Source: Candidatus Sulfotelmatobacter sp.
GTDB lineage: Bacteria; Methylomirabilota; Methylomirabilia; Methylomirabilales; DASPOZ01
Reading direction: 5' to 3'
Length of the DNA stretch: 12,859 nucleotides
NCBI GenBank assembly: GCA_035625755.1
Contig: DASPOZ010000194.1
Location: forward strand, 1 to 12,859
The notes beneath the pieces are model-generated. The model saw nothing but the letters and a program-made list of their open reading frames with translations. It was not told where the DNA came from and did no database searches. The first letter of the stretch is position 1. Each line of letters opens with the position of its first letter. The position numbers and the translations under genes are program-made. Positions 1,412 through 12,843 of the stretch are shown here, one piece after another.

Positions 1412-3694
1412 ATGCAGGACACCCAGGTCTTGGAAGGTCTTCGCCTCAAGGTGGCCGAAGCGGGCCAGGAAGACGTGGGGCGGGGCATCGTGCGCATCAC
1501 CGAGGCGGCCTTCGCCGCCCTGGAGATGGAGCGCGGCCAGATCGTGTCCATCGTGGGCGAGCGGGAGACGGCCGCCCAGGTGGCGGCCGCCCGCTCGGCG
1601 GACCAGGGGCTGGACGTGATCCGGATGGACGGCGTGATCCGCACCAACGCCCGCGCCAGTATCGGCGACTACGTGCAGGTGCGCAAGGCCCTCTGGCGGG
1701 AGGCCGAGAAGGTCACGCTGGCGCCGACCCGCAAGGGCATCCGCGTGGTGGCCCCGGGGGAGGCCCTGCGCCAGGCGCTCATCTACCGCCCGGTGGTGAA
1801 GGGCGACCTGATCACGGCCGGCACGGCCCAGCGCCCGCGGGAGATCCTGCCGCCCGGCATGTACCCGGAGGAGCTGCTGCGCGGCTTCCTGGGGTCGCTG
1901 GCCATCGGGCTGGGCGAGGTGCGGCTGATCGTGGCGGCCACGACCCCCTCCGGCATCGTCCGCATCACCGCCCAGACCGAGGTGGAGCTGCTCCCCGAGT
2001 ACGTGGAGACGAAGGAGGCCCGGGTCCCGGACATCACCTACGACGACATCGGCGGGCTGGGGGACGTGATCAACGAGATCCGCGAGGTCGTCGAATTGCC
2101 CCTCAAGCACCCGGAGCTGTTCGACCGCCTGGGGATCACGCCCCCCAAGGGCGTCCTCCTGAGCGGCCCGCCGGGGACCGGCAAGACCCTGCTGGCGCAG
2201 GCCCTGGCCAACGAGGCCAAGGCCCACTTCGCCTCCATCAACGGGCCCGAGATCATGGGGCGCTTCTACGGGGAATCGGAGGAGCGCCTGCGGGCCATCT
2301 TTCAGGAGGGCATGGAGCACCCGCCCGCCATCATCTTCATCGACGAGCTGGACTCCATCGCCCCCAAGCGCGAGGCGGTGACGGGGGAGGTGGAGCGCCG
2401 CGTGGTGGCCCAGCTCCTCACCCTGATGGACGGGCTGACGCCGCGGGGGAACGTCATCGTCATCGGGGCCACCAACCGGGTGAGCGCCGTGGATCTCGCC
2501 CTGCGCCGCCCCGGCCGGTTCGACCGGGAGATCGAGCTGCACGTCCCGGACCGGCACGGCCGCCGCCAGATCCTCACCATCCACACGCGGGCCATGCCCC
2601 TGGCCCCCGACGTGAACCTGGACTGGGTGGCGGACCTCACCCACGGCTGCGTGGGGGCGGACCTGGCCGCCCTCTGCCGCGAGGCCGCCCTGAGCGCCCT
2701 GCGGCGGATCCTGCCGGAGCTGGACCTGACGCTGGAGACCATCCCCCCGGAGATCCTGCAGCGGCTGGTGGTGGCCCACCAGGACTTCAGCCAGGCCCTC
2801 CACAAGATTCGCCCCTCGGCCCTGCGCGAGCTGCTCATCGAGGTGCCCCGCGTCACGTGGCACGATATCGGCGGCCTGGCCGACGTGAAACGGGCCCTGC
2901 GCGAGACGGTGGAGCTGCCCCTCACGCATCCCCAGGCCTTCCTGCGCCTGGGGATCAAGGCCCCCAAGGGCGTGCTCCTCTACGGGCCGCCGGGGACCGG
3001 GAAGACTTTGCTGGCCAAGGCCGTTGCCAACGAGGCGCGGGCCAACTTCATGCTGGCCAAGGGGAGCGACCTGCTCTCCAAATGGTACGGCGAGTCCGAA
3101 CAGCGCATCCGCGAGTTCTTCGCCAAGGCGCGCCAGGTGGCGCCCGCCATCGTGTTCTTCGACGAGGTGGACGCCCTGTTCCCCCGGCGGGGGATGGCGG
3201 CGGGCGAGCCCCACGTCACCGAGCGGATCGTGAACCAGCTCCTCTCGGAACTGGACGGGCTGGAGGAGCTGCGGGGGGTGGTGATCCTCGGGGCCACCAA
3301 TCGGCCGGACCTGCTGGACCCGGCCCTCCTGCGCCCCGGCCGTTTCGACGCCCTGGTGTACGTGCCGGTGCCGGACGCCGCGGCCCGCCGCGAGATCCTG
3401 GCCGTTCACACCAAGCCCATGGCCCTGGCCCCCGATGTGAACCTGGCGGATCTCGTGCGGCGCACCGAGCGCTTCACCGGGGCGGACCTGGCGGCCCTCT
3501 GCATGAAGGCCGCGCAGCTCGCCCTGCGGATGGACCTGGAGGCCAAGGCCGTGACCCACGCCGACTTCCAGGCCGCGCTGCAGGAGATCCTCCCCTCCGT
3601 CACCGAGACCATGGAGCGCGAGTACGCCGAGGTGGGGAAGCGCCTGCGCCAGGCGGTGCCCCGGGGCGATGGCGGCCCCGGCCATTACCTGTAG
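1412..3694 (+). CDS. CDC48/VCP/p97-like AAA+ ATPase with N-domain and two AAA modules (D1, D2), 760 aa
   Basis: Two Walker A motifs GPPGTGKT, at residues ~243 and ~524. Two Walker B motifs (IIFIDELD, IVFFDEVD). Two second-region-of-homology stretches (GATNR...). N-terminal double-psi barrel-like region. RBS AAGGAGCGAGGGG lies upstream of ATG 1412. Stop TAG 3692-3694. Confidence 0.93.
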   Translation: MQDTQVLEGLRLKVAEAGQEDVGRGIVRITEAAFAALEMERGQIVSIVGERETAAQVAAARSADQGLDVIRMDGVIRTNARASIGDYVQVRKALWREAEKVTLAPTRKGIRVVAPGEALRQALIYRPVVKGDLITAGTAQRPREILPPGMYPEELLRGFLGSLAIGLGEVRLIVAATTPSGIVRITAQTEVELLPEYVETKEARVPDITYDDIGGLGDVINEIREVVELPLKHPELFDRLGITPPKGVLLSGPPGTGKTLLAQALANEAKAHFASINGPEIMGRFYGESEERLRAIFQEGMEHPPAIIFIDELDSIAPKREAVTGEVERRVVAQLLTLMDGLTPRGNVIVIGATNRVSAVDLALRRPGRFDREIELHVPDRHGRRQILTIHTRAMPLAPDVNLDWVADLTHGCVGADLAALCREAALSALRRILPELDLTLETIPPEILQRLVVAHQDFSQALHKIRPSALRELLIEVPRVTWHDIGGLADVKRALRETVELPLTHPQAFLRLGIKAPKGVLLYGPPGTGKTLLAKAVANEARANFMLAKGSDLLSKWYGESEQRIREFFAKARQVAPAIVFFDEVDALFPRRGMAAGEPHVTERIVNQLLSELDGLEELRGVVILGATNRPDLLDPALLRPGRFDALVYVPVPDAAARREILAVHTKPMALAPDVNLADLVRRTERFTGADLAALCMKAAQLALRMDLEAKAVTHADFQAALQEILPSVTETMEREYAEVGKRLRQAVPRGDGGPGHYL

Positions 3695-3848
3695 CAGGCT
3701 GCTGAAAAAGGCCCAGCATCTCCTCCCGCTTCCTCGGCGGCAGCGGGTGGGGCGTTGGCGGCCTCGCGCACTCCCTGCGGCGTACCCGGAGTACGCCTCA
3801 GTCGGCGCTTCGCGCGCCGCCTTGCATCTGGACCTTTTTGAGCAGCCC
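3692..3848 (-). mobile_element. MITE-like repeat, copy 1, ~157 bp, in orientation B. Its right end is degenerate.
   Basis: Left terminus TAGCAGGCTGCTGAAAAAGGCCCAGCATC and right terminus GCATCTGGACCTTTTTGAGCAGCC form a ~25-bp inverted repeat. The interior carries the GC box (GCGCGCCGCCTTGC) and the hairpin CCCGCTTCCTCGGCGGCAGCGGG. It aligns end-to-end with copies 2, 3, 4 and 6. Its first three bases are the CDC48 stop codon. Confidence 0.8.
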
Positions 3849-3979
3849 GGGAGAGAACCGGATTTTCAGCATCCTGCGAGGCGTTGGGGGTGGGGGGTCG
3901 GAGTGGCAATACCTACGAGGCCTGCTCCGATGTGTCTCCCCGGCCCCTGACCCCCGGTCCCCAACTCCGCCCGGCATCA

Positions 3980-4008
3980 TTGACGGCCGCGGGGTTCGGT
4001 GCTAGGGT
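3980..4008 (+). promoter_or_regulatory. Sigma70-like promoter: -35 TTGACG (3980-3985), 17-nt spacer, -10 TAGGGT (4003-4008)
   Basis: Hexamers and spacing read directly from the sequence. It lies ~25 nt upstream of the GTG start of the small ORF at 4033. Confidence 0.4.
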
Positions 4009-4032
4009 CCTACCGAAGGTTGGAGCAGGCCG

Positions 4033-4278
4033 GTGGCACACAGCGGGGCGTACGAGCGGCGGCGGCGGGTTGCCATCGAGGCACTCTGGGAGAATGTCTG
4101 CGCGTTCCGCGCCACCCTCCGCACGGTGCCTCCCGCCGTGCGGGACATCGCCATCGAAACGTTCGAAACCGAGGCGGCCCGCCTCCTGGGCCCGGGCTCC
4201 CCGCTCCTGAAAGAGATGGTTCACGCCCTCCGCCGCGGCCTGCCCGGCGCCCCGAAACCCACGGTCCACCGCGCGTAA
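4033..4278 (+). CDS. Hypothetical small protein, 81 aa, GTG start
   Basis: High-GC3 open frame with an upstream promoter-like -35/-10 pair and a GGAG-containing leader. No recognisable motif. It lies between two inverted MITE copies. It could be a gene fragment. Confidence 0.35.
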   Translation: MAHSGAYERRRRVAIEALWENVCAFRATLRTVPPAVRDIAIETFETEAARLLGPGSPLLKEMVHALRRGLPGAPKPTVHRA

Positions 4279-4498
4279 CCACTGCCTCGGCTCCTCCCGC
4301 AAATCTCCCTTTTCGGTCGGCTCCACCGCCGCCCTTGCATCCGGCCCGGCCCAGCGCTGCCCCTGGACGAAGCTCGCCCCCCGTCCCACCTTACAGTATG
4401 AGGGTCTATTCCAAGAACTGGCGCGAGATCTGCTCCGACTCGAAGGGCGTGGACGTTCTGGGACAGGCCCTAACAGGATGCGGAACAGTCCGTGTTCG

Positions 4499-4688
4499 GA
4501 CAGGCCGCTCAAAAAGGTCCAGATGCAAGGCGGCGCGCGATGGGCCGAGTGAGGCGTACGCCGGGTACGCCGCAGCGCCACCGCTGCCACAACGTCGGCA
4601 GCGGGAAATTGTCCGAGCCCGCCAACGCCCCACCCGCTGCCGCCGAGGCAGCGGGAAGAGATGTCGGGCCTTTTTCAGCGGCCTGCTA
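4499..4688 (+). mobile_element. MITE-like repeat, copy 2, ~190 bp, in orientation A. It carries an extra internal hairpin module.
   Basis: Left end CAGGCCGCTCAAAAAGGTCCAGATGCAAGGCGGCGCGCGA. Right end GATGTCGGGCCTTTTTCAGCGGCCTGCTA. Two internal hairpins: CCGCTGCCACAACGTCGGCAGCGG and CCCGCTGCCGCCGAGGCAGCGGG. Both terminal repeats share the CTG-to-CCG variant. Confidence 0.8.
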
Positions 4689-4699
4689 AATGGGCGGCC

Positions 4700-5569
4700 A
4701 TGGAGAACCGGGACATCGCGCGGCACCTAGACGAGGTGGCGGAGCTGCTTGCCCTGCAAGTCGAGAATCCGTTCCGGGTGGCGGCCTACCGCCGGGCCGC
4801 GGCGACGCTCCGGGGCCTGGGCCGGCGCGCGGAGGAGGTGGTGCGCGCCGAGGGGCGCACGGGCCTCACCCGGCTGGTGGGCATCGGGGACTCGCTGGCC
4901 GCGAGCATCGAGGAACTGGTGGTCACCGGGCGTCTGGCCCTCCTGGACCGGCTACGCGGCCGGACGGACCCCGAGGCGCTCCTGGCCGGCGTGCCGGGCA
5001 TCGGCCCGAAGACCGCCCACCGGATCCACCAGCATCTGGGGATCGCCACGCTGGAAGACCTGGAGCTGGCCGCCCACGACGGTCGCCTGCGTGCCCTGGG
5101 CGGCTTCGGCCCCAAGCGGACCCAGGGCCTGCGGGATGCCCTTTCCGGCCGCCTGCGCCGGCGCCCCCAGCCGACCCCGCCCGCCCCACCGCCCCCCGAA
5201 GAGCCCTCCGTGGCCGAGTTGCTGGACGTGGACGCCGAGTACCGCCACAAGGCCGGCCGCGGCGCGCTCCCCACCATCGCCCCCCGTCGGTTCAACCCGG
5301 CCGGCGAGGCCTGGCTTCCCATCCTCCACACGGAGCGGGAACGCGCCCGCTACACGGCCCTCTTCTCCAACACCGCCCGCGCCCACGAGCTGGGAGCCAC
5401 GCGGGACTGGGTAGTGATCTACTTCGACGACGGCGTCGCGGAGAGGCAATGCACGGTGGTGACGGAACGGCGGGGGCCGCTGGCCGGCCGGAGGGTGGTG
5501 CGGGGGCGCGAGCCCGAATGCCGCGACCACTACGCCGCCGAAGGTGCAGGGACGCCCCGCGCCGCGTAG
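4700..5569 (+). CDS. DNA polymerase X family N-terminal-like helix-hairpin-helix DNA-binding protein, 289 aa. It has the 8-kDa-like and fingers-like domains but no palm. A Pro-rich linker joins these to an uncharacterised C-terminal domain.
   Basis: MENRDIARHLDEVAELLALQVENPFRVAAYRRAAATL matches the Pol X / Pol beta N-terminal helix pattern (N-EIA..L.EIA.LLEL.GENPF-RAYR-AA). Two HhH motifs (GIGDSLAASI, GIGPKTAHRI) are followed by a GGFGPKRTQGL segment. A PTPPAPPPPEEP linker follows, then ~110 aa with no recognisable motif. The start was chosen at ATG 4700 (M-E-N) rather than 4661, because 4661-4688 lies inside the MITE terminal repeat. Stop TAG 5567-5569. Confidence 0.72.
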   Translation: MENRDIARHLDEVAELLALQVENPFRVAAYRRAAATLRGLGRRAEEVVRAEGRTGLTRLVGIGDSLAASIEELVVTGRLALLDRLRGRTDPEALLAGVPGIGPKTAHRIHQHLGIATLEDLELAAHDGRLRALGGFGPKRTQGLRDALSGRLRRRPQPTPPAPPPPEEPSVAELLDVDAEYRHKAGRGALPTIAPRRFNPAGEAWLPILHTERERARYTALFSNTARAHELGATRDWVVIYFDDGVAERQCTVVTERRGPLAGRRVVRGREPECRDHYAAEGAGTPRAA

Positions 5570-5784
5570 CAGGCTGCTGAAAAAGGCCCAGCATCTCTCC
5601 GCGCCGCCTCGACGGCAGCGGGTGGGGCGTTGGCGCGCTCGGACAATTTCCCGCTGCCGACGTTGCGGCAGCGGTGGCGCTGCAGCGTCCCCGGCCCTCC
5701 CATTCCGCAATCCGCATTCCGCATTCCGCAATGGGGGGCGCCGCCTTGCACCTGGACCTTCTTGAGCAGCCTGCCCGGAAGGGG
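5567..5784 (-). mobile_element. MITE-like repeat, copy 3, ~218 bp, in orientation B. It carries the extra hairpin and the heptad array.
   Basis: Termini TAGCAGGCTGCTGAAAAAGGCCCAGCATC ... CCTGGACCTTCTTGAGCAGCCTGC. Hairpins CGACGGCAGCGGG and CCCGCTGCCGACGTTGCGGCAGCGG. GC box GCGCCGCCTTGC. The first three bases are the stop codon of the HhH gene. Confidence 0.8.
5711..5738. repeat. Tandem heptad array ATTCCGC-AATCCGC-ATTCCGC-ATTCCGC inside MITE copy 3
   Basis: Four direct 7-bp units read directly. The same array is present, reverse-complemented, in copy 6. Confidence 0.85.
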
Positions 5785-5824
5785 GTTCTTCAGCGAGTCT
5801 GTCGGCGTGCCGCTGGAGGGCGCA

Positions 5825-6781
5825 TCATGGCTCGACCATCCGGAGGATGCCTAGCACCGACCGCCGCGCATCCAGGCGGTGGATGCCTTCGGCCGCCGCT
5901 GCCGCCACGGCCTCGCGGTACTCCGCGGCGGTGATGGGTCGGGCGATGGCCGGGTGGCGGAAGGCGAGGCCACAGGGGCGATACTGGTCCATGATGTTCA
6001 CGTAGGTGTTCCGCGAGATCTCCCGCGCCAGGAAGCGCATGACGGCGCGGGTGCCGGCCAGGCCGTTCGGCATCACCAGGTGGCGAACCAGCAGGCCCCT
6101 GCGCGCGATGCCGCGCTCGTCCAGCACCAGGTCTCCCACCTGCCGGTGCATCTCGCGCAGGGCCGCCTTGGCCACCTCGGGGTAGTCGGGGGCGTCCAGG
6201 TAGGTCGCCGCCGCCTCGGAATCGGCAAACTTGAAGTCCGGCATGTAGATATCCACGATGCCGTCCAGCATGCACAGCGTGGGGACGGCCTCGTAGCCCC
6301 CGCAGTTGTACACCAGCGGGACGCGCAGCCCCGCCGGCGCCGCCAGCGCCAGCGCCTCCAGGATCTGCGGCACCTGGTGGGTGGGGGTGACGAAATTGAT
6401 GTTGTGGCACCCCATCGCCTGGAGCCGCAGCATCATGGCGGCTAGGGCGCCCGGCTCTACCTCCTCCCCCTCCATCCCGTGGCTGATCTCGAAGTTCTGG
6501 CAGAAGACGCAGCGCAGGCTGCACGACGTGAAGAAGATGGTGCCGGAGCCGCCCCAGCCCACCAGCGGCTCCTCCTCGCCGAAGTGCGGGTTGAAGCTCG
6601 ACACCATGGCCTTCGCCCCCACCCGGCAGTCCCCCAATTCGCCCTCCAGCCGCGTGGCCGCGCACGCGCGCGGGCAGAGGCAGCATTCCCGCATCCGCCC
6701 GCGCGCCGCCGCCGCCCTCGCCCGCAGCTCCCCCGGCTCCAACGACAGGTAGGCCGGCGCCCACTTCTTGCCCGTCACCAC
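5825..6781 (-). CDS. Radical SAM enzyme, PflX-like (pyruvate formate-lyase activase-related, COG1313-type), 318 aa
   Basis: Radical-SAM CxxxCxxC motif (FTSCSLRCVFCQN). There is also an N-terminal Cys cluster, CCLCPRAC, which I recall as characteristic of PflX-type proteins. GTG start at 6779-6781 with a GGGGAGA RBS on the minus strand (reverse complement of 6787-6793). This frame was preferred over the overlapping 5790..6764 frame, which is Gly/Ala-rich and low-complexity. Confidence 0.85.
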   Translation of the reverse strand: MVTGKKWAPAYLSLEPGELRARAAAARGRMRECCLCPRACAATRLEGELGDCRVGAKAMVSSFNPHFGEEEPLVGWGGSGTIFFTSCSLRCVFCQNFEISHGMEGEEVEPGALAAMMLRLQAMGCHNINFVTPTHQVPQILEALALAAPAGLRVPLVYNCGGYEAVPTLCMLDGIVDIYMPDFKFADSEAAATYLDAPDYPEVAKAALREMHRQVGDLVLDERGIARRGLLVRHLVMPNGLAGTRAVMRFLAREISRNTYVNIMDQYRPCGLAFRHPAIARPITAAEYREAVAAAAAEGIHRLDARRSVLGILRMVEP

Positions 6782-6923
6782 GTCATCTCCCCAATCTGAA
6801 CATCCTCAGACCTGAATATGGCGCCACTCCCGCCATCGCGCCGCCCCGATCACCCGCGCGACCGGATCTTGGCGAGATCCGCGGCGCGACGCCGGCCTGG
6901 CCCGCCGCTGCGGCGGCGGGTCC

Positions 6924-7054
6924 TAGCAGGCTGCTCAAAAAGGTCCAAATGCAAGGCGGCGCGCGAAGGGCCGACTGAGGCGTACGCCGGGTACGCCGCA
7001 GGGAGTGCCCAAGCGCGCCAACGCCGCAGGTGGGCCTTTTTCAGCAGCCTGCTA
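6924..7054 (+). mobile_element. MITE-like repeat, copy 4, ~131 bp, in orientation A. This is the minimal form, with the central hairpin region shortened.
   Basis: TAGCAGGCTGCTCAAAAAGGTCCAAATGCAAGGCGGCGCGCGAAGGGCCGACTGAGGCGTACGCCGGGTACGCCGCAG ... GGTGGGCCTTTTTCAGCAGCCTGCTA. The interior carries near-palindromic GGCGTACGCC. The element is flanked by TA on both sides. Its last three bases, CTA, are the LysR stop codon on the minus strand. Confidence 0.8.
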
Positions 7055-7978
7055 CCGGCGGCGCAGGATGGGCCGTCCGCCCGCCCCGACCACCTCGCTC
7101 ACCGCGGCCCGCAGCGTCCGCAGGAAGGCGAGGGCCTCCTGGCTCCTCGGGTGGTGGCGCGAGTGGATCACGTCCAGGCTCCGGCTCAACGATTCCGCGT
7201 CGCTGACCTCGATGGCGACGAAGCGCTTCGCCCGGATGTCCCGCGCCACGGCCAGCCAGGGAAGGAAGGCGAGCCCCAGCCCGCGCTCCACCATCTGCTT
7301 CGCGGCCTCGATGGTTTCCACCTCCAGCACCACGTTGGGCACCAGGCCGGCGCGCCGGAACAGGCCGTGGGTCAACGTCCAGTCGCTGGAGCCGCGATCG
7401 AAGAAGACCAGCGGCCAATCCGCCAGCTCCTCCAGGCGGGCCCGGCGCGCCTTCGTGGGCACGTGCGCGCGATGGGCCACCAGGATCAGGGGATCGTCCC
7501 CCAGGCTCACCGTCTCCACCAGGGGGTGGTGGAGCGAGCGGGCCAGGCCGATCTCCGCCTCGCCCCGCAGCACCATCTCCAGGACCTCCTTGGAGTGCCC
7601 CGCCCGCACGGTGATGGTGACCTTCGGGTGGCCGGCCTGGAACCGTTTCAGGACGTCCGGCAGCAGGTAGGTGCAGATGGAGAGCGCCGCCGCGATGTGC
7701 AGGGTCCCGGCGGCCGCGCCCCGCGTCTCCTGCACCGCCTGGCGGGCGACGGCCACGGCATGCAGGAGTTGCTCCGCCTGGGGGCGCAGGGCCCGCCCCG
7801 CGGCGGACAGCACCAGCCCCTCCCGGCCGCGCTCGAAGAGCGCCGCGCCCAGGGAACGCTCCAGCGCCTTGATCCGCGCGCTGACGGCGGGCTGGCTGAC
7901 GAACAGCACCTCCGCCGCCCGGCGGAAGCCGCCGAAGGTCGCCACCGCCACGAAGGTCTTGAGCTGGTCGAACTCCAT
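7052..7978 (-). CDS. LysR-family transcriptional regulator, 308 aa
   Basis: The N-terminal winged-HTH domain starts directly at MEFDQLKTFVAVATFGGFRRAAEVLFVSQPAVSARIKALE. A typical LysR substrate-binding domain follows. ATG at 7976-7978. The upstream in-frame extension to 8341 has no alternative start and would cover the divergent promoter region. Stop TAG at 7052-7054. Confidence 0.9.
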   Translation of the reverse strand: MEFDQLKTFVAVATFGGFRRAAEVLFVSQPAVSARIKALERSLGAALFERGREGLVLSAAGRALRPQAEQLLHAVAVARQAVQETRGAAAGTLHIAAALSICTYLLPDVLKRFQAGHPKVTITVRAGHSKEVLEMVLRGEAEIGLARSLHHPLVETVSLGDDPLILVAHRAHVPTKARRARLEELADWPLVFFDRGSSDWTLTHGLFRRAGLVPNVVLEVETIEAAKQMVERGLGLAFLPWLAVARDIRAKRFVAIEVSDAESLSRSLDVIHSRHHPRSQEALAFLRTLRAAVSEVVGAGGRPILRRR

Positions 7979-8055
7979 CGGGCCGCACCCCCCGGTCCGC
8001 CCCGGCCGGAACCGGCGCGGCCCCCCCGCCACCGGCGCCCCGGCCTCGTCCGTAT

Positions 8056-8072
8056 GATAACATTTTTTTATC
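8056..8072. promoter_or_regulatory. Perfect interrupted dyad GATAA-N7-TTATC, containing a T-N11-A LysR-type box, in the divergent LysR / isocitrate lyase intergenic region. A second GATAA lies at 8084-8088.
   Basis: Read directly. It is the only AT-rich patch in a ~350-bp GC-rich intergenic region, 78 bp upstream of the LysR start. Position and form match LysR-type regulator autoregulatory/activation sites. Confidence 0.45.
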
Positions 8073-8330
8073 GCGCCCATAAAGATAATCCGTTTGACTT
8101 GGTCTGCCCCGCGGGGCAATGTACGCCCACCCCAGCGCGCCCCGGCGGGCGCATCGCCGGGGTCCCTAGGGTAGACCCCTGCAGGGATCGGCACCACGGG
8201 CCCGGGCAGCCCCCGGGCCGGCAGCAGATCGTCCACGGGGTGCAGCCACGTACGCTCCGCACCCGCAGGCCGCGTCTTCGGCTGCGCTCCACAGGGCACC
8301 GAACCGTTCCGCCCAAGGAGGGAACGCTCC

Positions 8331-9386
8331 ATGGAGAGCAAAGGAAGGGAGTTCCGCCGTCTCCTGCGCCAAGAGCCCTACGTCTTCACGGGGGGTGTTG
8401 CCACGCCCCTCGACGCCCAGATCGCCGAACGGGTGGGGATGAAGGCCATCTACATGAGCGGCTACTCGGTGGCCATGGCCAGCGGGTGGCCGGACATGGG
8501 CTTCCTCACCATGACCGAGGTGACCAAGACCGCCTCCATGATGGCCAGCGCCGTCGGGATCCCCATCATCGCCGATGCGGACGACGGCTACGGCAACGCC
8601 CTCAGCACCCTGCGCACGGTCCAGGAGTTCATCAAGACCGGCGTCGCCGGGATCCACCTGGAAGACCAGCGGTTCCCCAAGCGGTGCGGCCACATCGCGG
8701 GTAAGACCATCGTGTCCCGGGACGAGGCCGTGGGCAAGTTCCGGGCCGCGGCCGCGGAACGGGACCGGCTGGACCCCGACTTCGTGCTCATCGCCCGCAC
8801 CGATGCCTTCGGGGCCGTGGGCGGGAGCCTGGAGGAGGCCGTCTGGCGCGGGCGCGCCTACGCCGACGCCGGCGTGGACCTGGTGTGGTGCGAGCTCTCC
8901 AACGCCGACCGTGCCCCCGCCGTGGCCTTCGCCGAGGCCATGCGGAAGACCCATCCCCACCTGCCCCTGGCCTTCAACTACTCCTCCTCCTTCCGCTGGC
9001 ACCAGAACCCGGAGCCCTTCCGCTTCCAGGAGCTGGCGGACCTGGGCTACAAGTTCATCTTCATCACGCTTTACGCGGCGCACGCGGCCATGTATGCTGT
9101 ATGGAACGCCATGGAAGACCTCGTGAGGAGCGAGGAGCAGGCCCAGTGGGCCCTGGAGCGGACGAAGGTGGGCCACCCCACCGAAAGCCACCACGTGATG
9201 GCGCGCGTGGCCCACTTCCAGGAGTTGGAGCGCCGGTTCGTGCCGGGCGCGGCCGAGCGCATCCAATCCTCCGACGGGTTCGGCGACGCCGGGCCCGACG
9301 GGCACTCAGGGCCGGCTCGACTGCTGGGATCCGAGGTCAGGGCGGCCGAGGGTTCGACCGTCGGCGCGCCCGCGGGGAGGCGCTGA
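8331..9386 (+). CDS. aceA: Isocitrate lyase (ICL/PEP-mutase superfamily lyase), compact 351-aa form with a Gly/Ala-rich C-terminal tail
   Basis: Family signature K-[KR]-C-G-H present as FPKRCGHIAGK, with the catalytic Cys. Segments align to E. coli AceA from memory: LVWCELS vs LVWCETS; LAFNYSSSFRW vs LAYNCSPSFNW; LGYKFIFITL vs MGYKFQFITL; ADADDGYGN vs ADAEAGFGG. Strong RBS AAGGAGGG lies 8 nt upstream of ATG 8331. Confidence 0.88.
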   Translation: MESKGREFRRLLRQEPYVFTGGVATPLDAQIAERVGMKAIYMSGYSVAMASGWPDMGFLTMTEVTKTASMMASAVGIPIIADADDGYGNALSTLRTVQEFIKTGVAGIHLEDQRFPKRCGHIAGKTIVSRDEAVGKFRAAAAERDRLDPDFVLIARTDAFGAVGGSLEEAVWRGRAYADAGVDLVWCELSNADRAPAVAFAEAMRKTHPHLPLAFNYSSSFRWHQNPEPFRFQELADLGYKFIFITLYAAHAAMYAVWNAMEDLVRSEEQAQWALERTKVGHPTESHHVMARVAHFQELERRFVPGAAERIQSSDGFGDAGPDGHSGPARLLGSEVRAAEGSTVGAPAGRR

Positions 9387-9397
9387 GGAGGTAGGTC

Positions 9398-11764
9398 ATG
9401 GCCATGATCCGCCAGGACGTTTTGCAGAAGTTCCCGCAGCTCTTCGGGACCAAGACGGCGAACGGCCGGCAAATCGACGTCGAGCAGGCCATCGCCACCC
9501 TCACCCGGGAGTTGGGTCCCGAGATCGCCGCGGCCCTCAGCGCGCGGCGGACGCTCCTGCAGTCCCCCGCGGGGGTCCGCGAGAAGTATGCCTGGCCCAA
9601 GTGGGACGACGCGTACGAAGATCCGCTCACCGGAAAGCCCTGGACGTTTCGCCAGATCGTCCAGGGCCTGATCGATAACATCCTCGGGCGGGACAGCCAG
9701 TGGCGCTGGCGCCTCAACGACGAGGTCCCCATCCCGGCGGACGCCCACCCGTTGACGAATCCCGGCCTGGAGCTCACCGGGCCGTGGCACCCGCTGGACA
9801 TGGCCTTCAACGCCTTGAACAGCCCGGCGCCCATGAACATGCCGGACTTCGAGGACGCCTCGCCGCCCCACTTCCAGCCCGACGGCACGCCCACGAACCA
9901 GCCGGTGGGGATCTTTGCGGCCATGCAGAACGCCAAGGAGATCCTGGAAGGCCGCTGGACCGGCCGCCCCTACGAGGTGGTGAAGAAAGGCCTATCGCGC
10001 GCGTACAAGATCAACACGTCCCCGGCGCAGTGGCCGACCCGTTTCGCCCGGCCCCCCGGCATCCACGTGCGGTATGACCACATCACGGTCGATGGCGAAC
10101 CGGCGCCCGGCTTGATCCCCATCACCCTTCTCTGGGCCCTCAACAACTACGACTCCCTCACGCAGGCGGGCACCGGCGTCTACTACTACATCCCGAAGAT
10201 CCAGACCCCCCAAGAGGCCCTCATCCTGGAGAAGCTCCTGGAGCGGCTGGAAGGCATGATGGGCCTCCGGCCCGGCACCCTCAAGATCAAGGTCCTCTAC
10301 GAGGAGGGGAATGCGGGGCGGTTCCTGCCCGCCATCGCCTGGGTCTTGCGGCGCCGGCTGCTGGGGACGAACGTCGGCCGCTGGGACTACCTGGCCAGCC
10401 TCATCGAGATGTGGAAGGACGACCCGCAGGGCGTCTTCCCGGATCCGCAGTTCATCGGCATGGCCACCCCGAACATGATCGCGTATCAGCGGTATAACGC
10501 CCTGATGATGCTGATGGCCGGCATGAAGGATGGCGAGCTCACCCACGGGGCCCCCATCGGCGGCATGGCGGCGGTCATGATCTACCAACCGTCCGATCCC
10601 TACGGCCGCTCGAAGTATAACCCGCTGGCCCTGCGCGCCATGGTCTTCGACAAGCTGCGGGAGCGCCTGCTGGGGCTCATGTTCGTGCCCGAGGCCCCGC
10701 CCCCCGCGGGGCACCGCCCCACCCTGGAAGACATCCTGGAGGGCCGCGTGAAGGGGCGCCTCTACGATGCCTATCGGCAGAGCTGGGTCGCCAGCCCGGA
10801 GCCGGCCTACGTCGCCGCCGGCAACGCCCCCTTGCGGGCCCCCGTGGCGCAGCTCCAGGCGATCCTGGATGCCCCCCACGAGACCGTGGACGTGAAGGGC
10901 AAGGCGGTGCCCACGGTCGCCAGCGGCCTGGTGGATGCGGAGCGGATCCTGCTGCAATCCCGCGGCCTGTTGAACCCGCAGGGCAGGATCACGCCCTGGG
11001 TCATCAGCAAGGATATGCTGAGCACGCCGGAGACACTCTTCACGCAGGAACTGTGGGACAGCATCTACGGCGTGCCCAAGGGTGAGATCACCATCGAGCA
11101 CATCCAGCACGCCTTCTACATGGCGGCGAACTACGGCTTCCAGATCCTCAACGGGAACTTCGCCGCCGCCATCGACGACTACGAGCTGATGCTGCGCTTC
11201 ATGAATGACCTCGCCACCTACCGCATCGACGTGTCCTGGCTGTGGAGCCTCGTCCACCACCAGGCCGCCATCACCAAGGACGGCCACCTCAAACGGCCGG
11301 CCCTCACCGAGGATGGGGTCGTGCCGGCGGTGAACGCCTTCGAGGTGAAGGCCGGGACGCGCTTCACCGCGGAGCTGTTCGAGAAATTGTGGGACTACCA
11401 CAACGAATGGACGGCGGCGTTCTTCGCCGAGCTGGACCGCCGCGGCGACCCCGGCCGCTTCGACCGCGCCAAGGCGCCCGTCATCATGGAGCTCCTGAAG
11501 CGGCAGCTGCTTTCGCCCCGTTACCTCCAGCACAGCGCCCGTGTGCTCTTCGTCGTGGGCCAGGCCAACGAGCAGGAGTGCGCCCAGATCCTGGACGCGA
11601 TCTTCGACCTCTCCCGCGAGGAGATCGTCCGGCGCGTTCAGGCAGGCACCCTGAGCAAGGTGGCCCTGGCCGCCCACGATTACGCCTACGACATCTTCCC
11701 GGCCACCGAGGGGGAGCAGCCAATGGCGGGGACATCCCAGCGGCAGGCCTACGCCAGAACGTGA
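9398..11764 (+). CDS. glcB: Malate synthase, G-type-like, 788 aa
   Basis: Alignment from memory to E. coli GlcB: YYYIPKIQTPQEA vs YIVKPKMHGPQEV; MGLRPGTLKIKVLYEEG vs LGMAPNTLKMGIMDEER; NVGRWDY vs NTGFLDR; TPWVISK vs TAWVPSP. The GAGGAGG RBS overlaps the aceA stop codon, indicating translational coupling. Confidence 0.85.
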   Translation: MAMIRQDVLQKFPQLFGTKTANGRQIDVEQAIATLTRELGPEIAAALSARRTLLQSPAGVREKYAWPKWDDAYEDPLTGKPWTFRQIVQGLIDNILGRDSQWRWRLNDEVPIPADAHPLTNPGLELTGPWHPLDMAFNALNSPAPMNMPDFEDASPPHFQPDGTPTNQPVGIFAAMQNAKEILEGRWTGRPYEVVKKGLSRAYKINTSPAQWPTRFARPPGIHVRYDHITVDGEPAPGLIPITLLWALNNYDSLTQAGTGVYYYIPKIQTPQEALILEKLLERLEGMMGLRPGTLKIKVLYEEGNAGRFLPAIAWVLRRRLLGTNVGRWDYLASLIEMWKDDPQGVFPDPQFIGMATPNMIAYQRYNALMMLMAGMKDGELTHGAPIGGMAAVMIYQPSDPYGRSKYNPLALRAMVFDKLRERLLGLMFVPEAPPPAGHRPTLEDILEGRVKGRLYDAYRQSWVASPEPAYVAAGNAPLRAPVAQLQAILDAPHETVDVKGKAVPTVASGLVDAERILLQSRGLLNPQGRITPWVISKDMLSTPETLFTQELWDSIYGVPKGEITIEHIQHAFYMAANYGFQILNGNFAAAIDDYELMLRFMNDLATYRIDVSWLWSLVHHQAAITKDGHLKRPALTEDGVVPAVNAFEVKAGTRFTAELFEKLWDYHNEWTAAFFAELDRRGDPGRFDRAKAPVIMELLKRQLLSPRYLQHSARVLFVVGQANEQECAQILDAIFDLSREEIVRRVQAGTLSKVALAAHDYAYDIFPATEGEQPMAGTSQRQAYART

Positions 11765-11802
11765 CCGTGGGGCGCCGCCCGTTGGCGGCCGCCCCGATCT
11801 TG

Positions 11803-11858
11803 AGGCCCGGCCCTCGCTTCCCCTGTTGGGAGGCGACGGCCGGGCCTGTGCATTTTTC
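11803..11858 (+). terminator. Intrinsic terminator: a long, nearly continuous helix followed by a U-run
   Basis: The outer stem AGGCCCGGCC (11803-11812) pairs with GGCCGGGCCT (11838-11847), 10 of 10. The inner stem CGCTTCCC (11815-11822) pairs with GGGAGGCG (11828-11835) with one G-U wobble, around a 5-nt loop. It is followed by GTGCATTTTT (T-run 11854-11858). It lies 39 nt after the malate synthase stop. Confidence 0.6.
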
Positions 11859-11896
11859 TGGCCCGTGAACGGAATACTGAACAACGCGCTCTTGCG

Positions 11897-11943
11897 CAGG
11901 CTGCTCAAAAGGGCCCAGATGCAAGGCGGCGCGCGAAGCGCCG
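11897..11943 (+). repeat. Truncated MITE-like copy 5: left terminal repeat plus GC box only
   Basis: CAGGCTGCTCAAAAGGGCCCAGATGCAAGGCGGCGCGCGAAGCGCCGA matches the left ~47 bp of copies 2, 4 and 6. Homology is then lost and no right terminal repeat is found downstream. Confidence 0.7.
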
Positions 11944-11975
11944 AGCCCAGGGCACATGCGCTCACTTAACCCTTA

Positions 11976-12099
11976 CCCCCCTTTGAAAAAGGGGGGAAGG
12001 GGGGATTTCGGGGATGCTGTGGTGGCAGCGATCTATCGGACGGTTGACGAGCAGTTGAGCGCCAAAATCCCCCCCGCCCCCCCCTTTGCTAAAGGGGGG
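11976..12099. repeat. Nested inverted-repeat element bounded by C/G homopolymer tracts (possible small RNA, bidirectional terminator or distinct MITE). Layout: C6-TTTGAAAAA-G6-AA-G6-ATTT ... AAAAT-C7-G-C8-TTTGCTAAA-G6.
   Basis: Two local hairpins: CCCCCCTTTGAAAAAGGGGGG at 11976-11996 and CCCCCCCCTTTGCTAAAGGGGGG at 12077-12099. A long-range complementarity is also present, GGGGGGAAGGGGGGATTT at 11991-12008 with AAAATCCCCCCCGCCCCCCCC at 12064-12084, which encloses a ~55-nt interior. It lies between the convergent malate synthase and VOC genes. Confidence 0.45.
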
Positions 12100-12167
12100 A
12101 GAAGAGGAAAAGGGGAGAGGGAATTTTCGGGAAGGGCATCCTGCAAACGTATTTCGATAACGCTACA

Positions 12168-12584
12168 CTAGATCCCGACGGGGGCGGTGGCCGTGGCCGA
12201 GCCGACGGCGCCGCTACGCTCCAGCAGCTCGATGCGCACGCCGTCGGGTCCTTCGAGGAAGGCGATCTTGGTGGTGGGGTTGAAGGCGGTGGGCTCCACG
12301 GTGAACTTCGCCCCCTTGGCCTTCAGCTCGGCCGCGGCGCGTTCGAGGCTCTCCACGCGGAGGCCGAAGTGGTCCAGCCGCGTGTTCTTCCCCTCGGCCA
12401 GCTCATCCGTGGGGCGGCGGGGGCGGACGATCAGCAGCGTGCCGCCGATGTCCAGCCACACCTGCGGCTGGCCGCTGACCAGTCCCCGATTCACCACCGC
12501 CGCGCCGAACATCCGCACGTAAAACTCCGCCGCCCGGTCCACGTCCGAAGCGATCAGGTGGACGTGATCGAATGTCCACTGCAT
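12168..12584 (-). CDS. VOC (glyoxalase I / bleomycin-resistance / dioxygenase) superfamily protein, 138 aa
   Basis: MQWTFDHVHLIASDVDRAAEFYVRMFGA has the typical VOC N-terminal beta-alpha-beta-beta-beta module, with a His in strand 1. A second module has LDHFGLRVESLERAAAELKAKGAKF ... IAFLEGPDGVRIELLE. ATG at 12582-12584 preceded by a very strong RBS GGGAGGGGGAGGG on the minus strand. Stop TAG 12168-12170. Confidence 0.85.
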   Translation of the reverse strand: MQWTFDHVHLIASDVDRAAEFYVRMFGAAVVNRGLVSGQPQVWLDIGGTLLIVRPRRPTDELAEGKNTRLDHFGLRVESLERAAAELKAKGAKFTVEPTAFNPTTKIAFLEGPDGVRIELLERSGAVGSATATAPVGI

Positions 12585-12635
12585 GTACCCTCCCCCTCCC
12601 ACCTCTCACACGATGATGAAAAACCTTCTCGTGCC

Positions 12636-12809
12636 CAGGCTGCTCAAAAAGATCCAGAGCAAGGCGGCGCCCATCATTGCGGAATGCGGATTGCGGAATG
12701 CGGAATAGAAGCGCCCGTACGTCGCGGCGCCGCGCGAGCGCGCCAACGTCCCACCCGCTGCCCCCGAGGCAGCGGGGAGAGATGTTGGGCCTTTTTCAGC
12801 AGCCTGCTA
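12636..12809 (+). mobile_element. MITE-like repeat, copy 6, ~174 bp, in orientation A. It carries the heptad array.
   Basis: CAGGCTGCTCAAAAAGATCCAGAGCAAGGCGGCGC ... CCCGCTGCCCCCGAGGCAGCGGGGAGAGATGTTGGGCCTTTTTCAGCAGCCTGCTA. It contains TGCGGAATGCGGATTGCGGAATGCGGAAT at 12678-12705, the reverse complement of the ATTCCGC array. Confidence 0.8.
12678..12705. repeat. Tandem heptad array GCGGAAT / GCGGATT x4 inside MITE copy 6
   Basis: Read directly. It is the reverse complement of the array in copy 3, and sits in the same position relative to the GC box. Confidence 0.85.
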
Positions 12810-12843
12810 GGCGGACCATGATGGTACCGAAGGAGGGCAAGAC

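Follow-up and report, generated by a model that had tools for sequence, protein, structure and literature searches.

The stretch of DNA analysed here, referred to throughout as the window, comprises the 12,859 nucleotides of contig DASPOZ010000194.1 (phylum Methylomirabilota), and its intergenic regions are populated by copies of a short inverted repeat, the structure, distribution and origin of which are the subject of this report. As established from Pfam and from gene calls on identical metagenome contigs, the window encodes a Band_7 protein (minus strand), a CDC48-like AAA ATPase (1412-3694, plus strand), an 81-residue protein (4033-4278, plus), a helix-hairpin-helix (HhH) protein (4700-5569, plus), a radical-SAM protein (5825-6781, minus), a LysR-type protein (7052-8080, minus), a PEP-mutase/ICL protein (8331-9386, plus), a malate-synthase-like protein (9398-11764, plus), a glyoxalase (12168-12584, minus) and an M20 peptidase, the gene of which lies on the minus strand and ends at 12796. 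The G+C content is 64-77%, and a scan of the window for tRNA and tmRNA genes found none. The terminal motif of the repeat, CAGGCTGCTSAAAAAGGYCCA, has 11 matches in the window at up to 3 mismatches, where 200 dinucleotide-preserving shuffles give an expectation of 0. A repeat finder, inspection of the sequence and a six-copy alignment all bear out the six places, five complete and one truncated and in both orientations, at which a first-pass annotation of this DNA had put copies. The copies add up to 1025 nt, which corresponds to 8% of the window as a whole and to ~46% of the DNA between its genes. That annotation also had them occupying nearly every intergenic region; most are indeed occupied, the count being six of nine, with none expected by chance.

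The limits of the element required revision. Sorting of the flanks showed the left flank to be itself conserved, and the true left end is formed by another copy of the terminal motif (TAGCAGGMTGCTGAAAAAC) that lies further out; what had been taken for the left arm is an inner repeat. While the places were right, five of the six copies thus run ~20-30 nt further on their GCAAGG side, and their sizes are 125-232 bp rather than the 130-220 bp first given. The full unit reads c/TAG-CAGG(A/C)TGCTGAAAAACCCGYTTTCGCC-CAGGCTGCTCAAAAAGGTCCAGATGCAAGGCGG...GCCAACGCCGCAGATGGGCCTTTTTCAGCAGCCTG-CTA/g. It consists of a segment of ~20-30 nt corresponding to the left end of an insertion sequence (IS; CAGGATGCTGAAAAACCC...), followed by a 125-nt imperfect palindrome or foldback core, with the termini 5'-CAGG...CCTG-3'. 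Both arms of the palindrome are inverted copies of the right-end motif (CAGGCTGCTSAAAAAGGYCC). Terminal inverted repeats are present, the left CAGG(A/C)TGCTGAAAAA being mirrored by the right TTTTTCAGCAGCCTG. The core can also stand by itself: copy D of the window and a copy at position 334 of locus L032 are the 125-nt core alone, and the core occurs with flanking repeats of its own. Among 125 inverted motif pairs, a spacing of 125 nt from CAGG to CCTG is the most frequent (41 pairs), and other length classes lie near 143-146, 164, 185-188 and 204 nt. The fixed differences between the two arms (C versus G, T versus C) noted at the outset are real, both in the window and family-wide. In contrast, the perfect hairpin CCCGCTGCCGCCGAGGCAGCGGG, first described as a feature of the family, is a nested module found only in copies of this window (4 of the 93 examined) and missing from copy D.

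The individual copies, named A to F, are as follows; scores in bits refer to a covariance model built from 20 copies. Copy A (3695..3876, minus strand) has the full form, i.e. IS-left-end segment, foldback core and one nested hairpin module, with a model match of 53 bits to its central part. Its right end adjoins the CDC48-like gene, the stop codon of which (TAG, 3692-3694) is held in the flanking GTAG (3691-3694), while the distal flank, CGAG (3877-3880), is degenerate. Copy B (4474..4685, plus strand; 39 bits) is also of full form, contains two nested hairpin modules (4581-4604 and 4634-4654) and is bounded by perfect 4-bp direct repeats, CTAA at 4470-4473 and CTAA at 4686-4689; its right end lies 1 nt before an ATG (4691) and 10 nt before the called start of the HhH gene. 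Copy C (5570..5801, minus strand) is a full form with a degenerate outer-left end, an array of ATTCCGC-like heptamers (5702-5732) and nested hairpin modules, one of them at 5651-5674; its right end adjoins the stop codon (TAG, 5567-5569) of the HhH gene. Copy D (6927..7051, plus strand), the bare core without outer-left segment, is flanked by CTAG (6923-6926) and CTAC (7052-7055), and the stop codon of the minus-strand LysR-type gene (TAG, 7052-7054) falls inside the right flank. At 138.5 bits it is among the best-scoring copies of the data set (top score 143.3). Copy E (~11871-11946, plus strand) is truncated: a degenerate outer-left motif, the inner terminal repeat and the GCAAGGCGGCGCGCGA box are kept, and the right half is gone. 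Copy F (12609..12806, plus strand; 32 bits) has the full form with a degenerate outer-left end, a heptamer array (12676-12706), a nested hairpin (12755-12775) and a right flank of CTAG (12807-12810).

The repeats are not confined to the window. An exact-match scan with one genome per species returned at least 95 stretches; of the 95 listed, ~85 lie in more than 20 metagenome-assembled genomes (MAGs) labelled NC10, Rokubacteria, Rokuibacteriota or Methylomirabilota; the CDC48 protein of the window is itself 87% identical to one named 'Candidatus Methylomirabilota bacterium'. A few stretches come from MAGs labelled Deltaproteobacteria, Thermodesulfobacteriota, Planctomycetota, Binatia or Baltobacteraceae, which may reflect either real spread or mis-binning. 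The covariance model recovered ~110 distinct copies in 690 kb of family loci, but no copy in the 57 kb that surround the CDC48 gene in the closest relatives of the window, nor any in the loci of HhH relatives. A metagenome scan with the HhH protein returned relatives of at most 62% identity without copies, and hence no usable empty sites. Thus, far from being limited to one genome, a possibility that the first-pass annotation had named as fatal to its proposal, the repeats form a wide family in many genomes. A search of the literature on repeats or MITEs (miniature inverted-repeat transposable elements) in Rokubacteria and Methylomirabilota found no description of them, and the family is a previously undescribed one, spread through an uncultured phylum. 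Seven short MAG contigs (L035, L037, L054, L072, L076, L079 and L083) begin or end inside a copy, an indication that short-read assemblies of these genomes are broken up by the repeats.

The flanks of the copies bear directly on their parentage. In 25 copies an xTAy stands at both ends, and in 16 of these the two form perfect 4-bp direct repeats (CTAG in 9, CTAA in 4, TTAG in 3). Seven of the perfect repeats are non-palindromic (CTAA/CTAA in 4, TTAG/TTAG in 3), whereas about 2 would be expected if only the TA were duplicated. This comparison matters since an IS630/Tc1-mariner-type transposon, inserting at TA, preferably within CTAG, duplicating the TA only and ending in RCAGG...CCTGY, was the parent first suspected from the TA/CTAG ends. 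IS630 prefers CTAG targets. Such an origin would agree with the TA found at both ends of most copies, with the flanking consensus C-TA-G and with the resemblance of the termini to mariner/Tc1 ends (ACAGGTTG...). Against it stand the excess of non-palindromic 4-bp repeats and a motif search (YSPxLNPIE-type) which found no IS630-like open reading frame (ORF) in any locus.

What overturned the suspicion, next to the flank statistics, are full-length ISs with the same termini, which encode IS5-family and not DDE_3 transposases and lie within CTAA/CTAA and TTAG/TTAG duplications. A blastn search with the consensus against plasmids gave three weak matches, two in Methylocella tundrae records and one in Limimaricola variabilis. 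The outer-left 30 nt of the element match 28 of 30 positions at the left end of a 1263-bp IS on the Methylocella tundrae plasmid NZ_LR536452.1. This IS reads CTAG/CAGGATGCTGAAAAACCCTTTCGC...GGCGTTTTTCAGCAGCCTG/CTAG, and its ends are CAGGATGCTGAAAAACCC...TTTTTCAGCAGCCTG. Its 353-residue protein is annotated as an IS5-family transposase, contains DUF772 and DDE_Tnp_1 domains, and scores 243 bits against NCBIfam NF033581 (cut-off 140). The right terminus matches, at 22 of 22 positions, the end of an IS on the Limimaricola plasmid that belongs to the same clade, is decayed and has TTAG/TTAG flanks. Four copies of a related IS, all from one assembly, are flanked by CTAA/CTAA, CTAG/CTAG, CTAA/CTAA and CTAG/CTAG, and a 4-bp YTAR duplication is seen at six sites of related full-length ISs. 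YTAR target duplication by IS5 has been published (PMC5009759). The difference between a left CAGGA and a right CAGGC is common to the Methylocella IS and the element described here, and the terminal 16-18 nt match annotated IS5-family ISs in Alphaproteobacteria, the only group in which matching full-length ISs were found. Together, the flank statistics, the full-length IS matches and the insertions of related ISs indicate MITEs of IS5 type and not of IS630 type, and we consider an IS630-type parent improbable.

Thus, with a probability of roughly 85%, we take the repeats to be non-autonomous transposons derived from an IS of the IS5 family, of IS5-group type. Several observations weigh against this conclusion. 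Nine of the 25 flank pairs contain a mismatch. In the cleanest pair of empty and filled sites, the empty locus L058 reads ...CCTCC TAAT AGG... and the filled locus L090 ...CTAA/CAGGTTGCTG...CATCCTG/TTAA TAGG..., which fits a TA duplication with complementary A...T end bases exactly, as an IS630-type transposon would leave, and fits the 4-bp model only with one mutation. The two plasmid matches are individually weak (E values of 0.1 and 0.4), and they are convincing because both inspected regions fall exactly on IS termini, and only for that reason. A tblastn search of ~750 kb of Methylomirabilota loci found no transposase of this clade, and the named close relatives of the Methylocella transposase, as well as the cluster names, are all alphaproteobacterial. 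For these last two reasons, we infer mobilisation in the host: an IS5-type DDE transposase supplied in trans would recognise the ends, insert the element at 5'-YTAR-3' and duplicate those 4 bp. The window was correctly said to contain no transposase, as both Pfam searches of its large ORFs and tblastn with an IS5-type transposase found none. Pairs of termini 0.6-4 kb apart were considered as full-length ISs; all proved to be separate MITEs, and solo termini are decayed copies.

The termini also bear on the other parent that the first-pass annotation had suggested next to IS630/Tc1, a RAYT (IS200/IS605-like) tyrosine transposase moving REP/BIME-type repeats. The repeats are palindromic, abundant, intergenic and near gene ends, much as REPs are, but their units measure 125-230 nt and possess terminal inverted repeats and target-site duplications, as opposed to hairpins of 20-40 nt lacking duplications, their termini match DDE-type IS5-family elements, and Pfam searches of the large ORFs found no RAYT-like gene or Y1 transposase in the window. 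We give this origin next to no credence; both suggested parents fit less well than the IS5 family, to which the termini and the 4-bp YTAR duplication point.

Direct traces of mobility were found by an all-against-all comparison of loci, which yielded three orthologous pairs of filled and empty sites from different MAGs. Besides L058/L090, these are L042 (empty) and L092 (holding a composite of 1.5 units), and L039 (empty) and L045 (filled). Filled and empty sites with duplications indicate that the element inserts as a unit. In addition, copy A is absent from four relatives with 87-89% identical CDC48 proteins (L180-L184), where the gene ends ...G-H-Y-L-TAA and unrelated sequence follows. In the window, it ends ...G-H-Y-L-TAG/CAGGCTG...; the element has inserted at the stop codon without altering the protein. 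Thus, the dispersed, non-autonomous miniature inverted-repeat family first proposed is supported by the width of the family, its duplications, its filled and empty sites, its IS termini and the lack of a matching Rfam family.

One of these relatives differs from the window in gene content as well. In L182 (89% identical CDC48; 6958-8206), the gene for the 81-residue protein is directly followed by the LysR gene, whereas in the window the HhH and radical-SAM genes lie between the two, with copy B on one side and copy D, in the same orientation, on the other (4474-7051). Between these close relatives, the block is an indel. We considered whether copies B and D form a composite transposon around the two genes; this is unneeded, as copy B has its own perfect CTAA/CTAA. 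As a separate observation, the CDC48-type double-AAA ATPase of the window is 85-94% identical to its counterparts within the phylum and ~60-65% identical to those beyond, many of the named matches there being methanogenic archaea (Methanothrix, Methanocella), which hints at an archaeal-type Cdc48 in this bacterium.

The position of copy A on a stop codon proved to be a general property. Using a GC-phase gene caller, which reproduces all 3' ends known from contig annotation, a coding-like ORF was found to end at the element in 50 of 93 oriented copies (54%). In 42 of these, a TAG, TAA or TGA stands immediately outside the right CCTG, and in the other 8 the stop is a TGA 11 nt inside the element. 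Both arrangements are seen in the window: the stop codons of the CDC48, HhH and LysR genes lie in the 4-mers that flank copies A, C and D, respectively (the C-terminus of the LysR-type protein is of similar length in L182), while the minus-strand ORF of the M20 peptidase extends 11 nt into copy F at its right terminus, its stop codon being the TGA at 12796-12798, inside GCTGCTGA. The latter arrangement, also present in eight copies of other loci, means that the element supplies stop codons in two reading frames. Among the 47 copies with a recognisable outer-left end, the stop is shared at the right in 21, at the left in 10 and at both ends in 3; this excess of right over left of about 2:1 is a trend which we do not regard as established.

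The target offers a simple account of this position. YTAR contains TAG or TAA on both strands and is duplicated, hence insertion in a stop codon rebuilds the stop and leaves the protein unchanged. It occurs 0.45 times per kb of coding and 4.1 times per kb of non-coding DNA, i.e. about nine-fold more rarely in coding DNA, the non-coding figure including the duplications of the elements themselves. With YTAR being rare in the coding DNA of genomes of 70% G+C, stop codons and short spacers would be the main tolerated targets, and copies would consequently pile up exactly at gene ends.

The open frames at these ends could also be read as small protein-coding genes, as an ATG, TTG or GTG is often found in the outer-left segment with a frame open to the terminal TAG (for example MLKNPQAAQKGPD...GPFSAAC*), and open frames cross many copies on both strands. 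At 70% G+C, however, chance alone would be expected to give such frames. The frame is not kept, as there are cores of 124, 125, 126 and 127 nt, residues of the flanks are not conserved between copies at the amino-acid level, and the variation is compensatory in stems and not three-periodic. That the repeats are genes is, in our judgement, extremely improbable.

We then considered the element as RNA. For the consensus core, the predicted fold is one long, imperfect hairpin of -84.5 kcal/mol (z -9.3) on the plus strand and -73.7 kcal/mol (z -7.1) on the minus strand; the average core folds at about -85 and -76 kcal/mol, respectively, and copy D at -90.4 and -83.1 kcal/mol. The plus strand is the more stable one in 87 of 93 copies, by a mean margin of 8.5 kcal/mol. 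The stem of ~50 bp is bracketed by A5 and T5/U5, which gives it a terminator-like look on both strands. Compensatory changes were counted on a hand-mapped structure in 20 copies of equal length; MAFFT with RNAalifold on 57 copies mis-paired the variable middle, and alignment by the covariance model mixes the strands of this palindromic element, so neither was used for counting. Paired cells make up 94.1% against 88.9% in shuffles, and 14 pairs are changed on both sides, compared with 6.8 +/- 1.5 in shuffles (0 of 500 reaching 14) and 1-7 in slid controls. In the middle helix, 11 of 15 pairs are compensatory. These counts have to be read with the caveat that the copies are mutually related and that quasi-palindrome correction yields paired changes without selection. 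The data show that the foldback is maintained, not why.

Taken together with the location of the copies at gene ends, the strong fold with A5 upstream and U5 downstream of the stem, the excess of compensatory changes and the consistently better-folding strand would all suit a structured element selected by the host, acting as a bidirectional intrinsic terminator, a stabiliser of mRNA 3' ends or an RNase target, and conserved and spread by virtue of that function and not by transposition. Several results argue otherwise. Filled and empty sites with duplications reflect insertion as a unit, the A5/T5 tracts belong to, and are inherited from, the IS termini, and template switching that corrects quasi-palindromes can give the appearance of compensatory change. 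Searched at permissive E-values, Rfam 15 gave nothing on the repeats, so that a known structured RNA family, the other finding that the first-pass annotation held would undo its proposal, is not what they are; only four chance-level miRNA matches were returned, all on a different repeat at 11969-12115. A simple terminator and promoter scan found 7 terminator sites against 5.4 in shuffles, i.e. no excess, and none spans a whole foldback, which the stem and loop limits of the scanner exclude. Finally, among classifiable copies, 51 lie between co-directional genes, 14 between convergent and 12 between divergent ones; with two-thirds co-directional and only 18% convergent, the distribution does not suggest strong terminators. 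An origin by function in place of transposition is very unlikely.

A secondary exaptation of the foldback of an IS5-derived MITE is possible. A transcribed copy would form a very stable hairpin flanked by A5 and U5, which may stop or stabilise transcripts, and the view of the first-pass annotation that the elements shape transcript ends is plausible on the strength of the predicted fold. The further proposal, that selection keeps the foldback phylum-wide as a gene-end cassette in which protein-neutral insertion at stop codons is combined with a stable, orientation-biased hairpin whose A5/U5 would terminate or protect transcripts, is one that we put forward tentatively and consider doubtful.

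The longer copies of the window contain inserted CCGCTGCC-N-GGCAGCGG hairpins and arrays of GCGGAAT heptamers, while longer copies in other MAGs contain GGGTACCCAYCC-N4-GGRTGGGT hairpins at several positions and in either arm. The nested hairpin modules are 20-30 nt long. Besides those located above, a variant is present in the window at ~3726-3748, and others are found at L011:4843, L014:2827, L075:4203, L096:4826 and elsewhere; they are nested in the foldback arms, and some copies have them in both. The sequence of the modules differs by lineage, the former type occurring only in this window and the latter in other MAGs. They could have arisen by local duplication or be a further, tiny mobile hairpin. 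The tandem heptanucleotide arrays inside the window's elements (GCGGAAT/GCGGATT) have counterparts in elements and in intergenic DNA of related genomes (L182:6840-6880; L183:2750-2790 and 2900-2940; L084:183-252; L011 upstream of 3325), which are built of other heptamers, and recall the short tandem heptamer repeats of cyanobacteria. It would appear that, after insertion, copies gained nested small hairpins and heptamer arrays while their outer-left ends decayed.

Other small repeats lie nearby. Directly after the truncated copy E, a different inverted repeat (11969-12110) comprises two hairpins of G/C runs (CCCTTACCCCCCTTTGAAAAAGGGGGGAAGGGG and CCCCCCCGCCCCCCCCTTTGCTAAAGGGGGGAG) ~50 nt apart, and similar G-run/C-run hairpins are found within or beside copies in L024, L067 and L069. 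A small hairpin repeat (AGCCGTTACGAAAT...TTGACAACGGCT) lies by elements or indels in two MAGs (L042:~5199-5230 and L045:~5265-5300), and a further inverted repeat, of CGGCCGT heptamers, lies 3' of the CDC48 stop codon in L183/L184 (2745-2945).

Comparison with known systems places the family as follows. With IS5-group ISs (the 1263-bp Methylocella IS and E. coli IS5), the repeats share the terminal 16-18 nt (CAGGATGCTGAAAAACCC at the left, CAGGCTGCTGAAAAA at the right) and the 4-bp YTAR duplication, and with the Methylocella IS also the A-versus-C difference between left and right. They differ in being 125-230 bp long without a transposase gene, as opposed to ~1.3 kb, in having a foldback of end sequence and not coding DNA as their interior, and in their host phylum, the full-length ISs found being alphaproteobacterial. 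ERIC/IRU elements of enterobacteria are imperfect palindromes of ~127 bp in transcribed intergenic regions. The repeats resemble them in size (125-127 nt), in being imperfect palindromes over their whole length, in optional internal insertions and in adjoining genes within transcription units; the sequences are unrelated, and here the type of parent IS and the target duplication are directly readable. Correia/NEMIS elements of Neisseria, of ~100-155 bp and with a TA duplication, have reported effects on transcription and RNase III processing. They too are MITEs that occur densely at gene boundaries and have terminal inverted repeats, a TA-containing target and long potential RNA hairpins, but the duplication here is a 4-bp YTAR and not TA, and termini and host are different. 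Tourist-type MITEs belong to the eukaryotic PIF/Harbinger superfamily, which is related to IS5, and duplicate TAA/TTA. Like them, the repeats derive from IS5-related DDE transposons, are non-autonomous, use palindromic, TA-rich targets and favour gene ends; unlike them, they are bacterial, with a duplication of 4 bp instead of 3 bp and a foldback core. REP/BIME elements are likewise abundant palindromic repeats 3' of stop codons, but REPs are much shorter, lack terminal inverted repeats or duplications and are tied to RAYT transposases. By this comparison, the family would stand closest to ERIC in shape and size, to Correia in density, and to IS5 and the eukaryotic Tourist/PIF lineage in ancestry. 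In kind, it is an ordinary bacterial MITE; what is new is the family itself, its host range in an uncultured phylum, its architecture of an IS left end plus a foldback, and the logic of its stop codons.

These findings have consequences at several levels. A repeat that recurs through Methylomirabilota MAGs now has a sequence, a structure, a definition of its boundaries and a covariance model, which is of practical importance since such repeats break assemblies, yield spurious 'hypothetical protein' calls and can mislead binning. The repeats of an uncultured phylum are linked to a clade of IS5 that is very common in soil metagenomes (at least 8000 protein candidates, all with E ≤1e-20). A target that contains a stop codon, YTAR, and is duplicated on insertion provides a simple reason for a transposon to be located precisely at stop codons. 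Should the hairpins have an effect on transcript ends, they would be relevant to the prediction of operons in these genomes, and if the foldback is indeed kept as a gene-end cassette, the compensatory changes and the consistently better-folding strand would be the signatures of its function.

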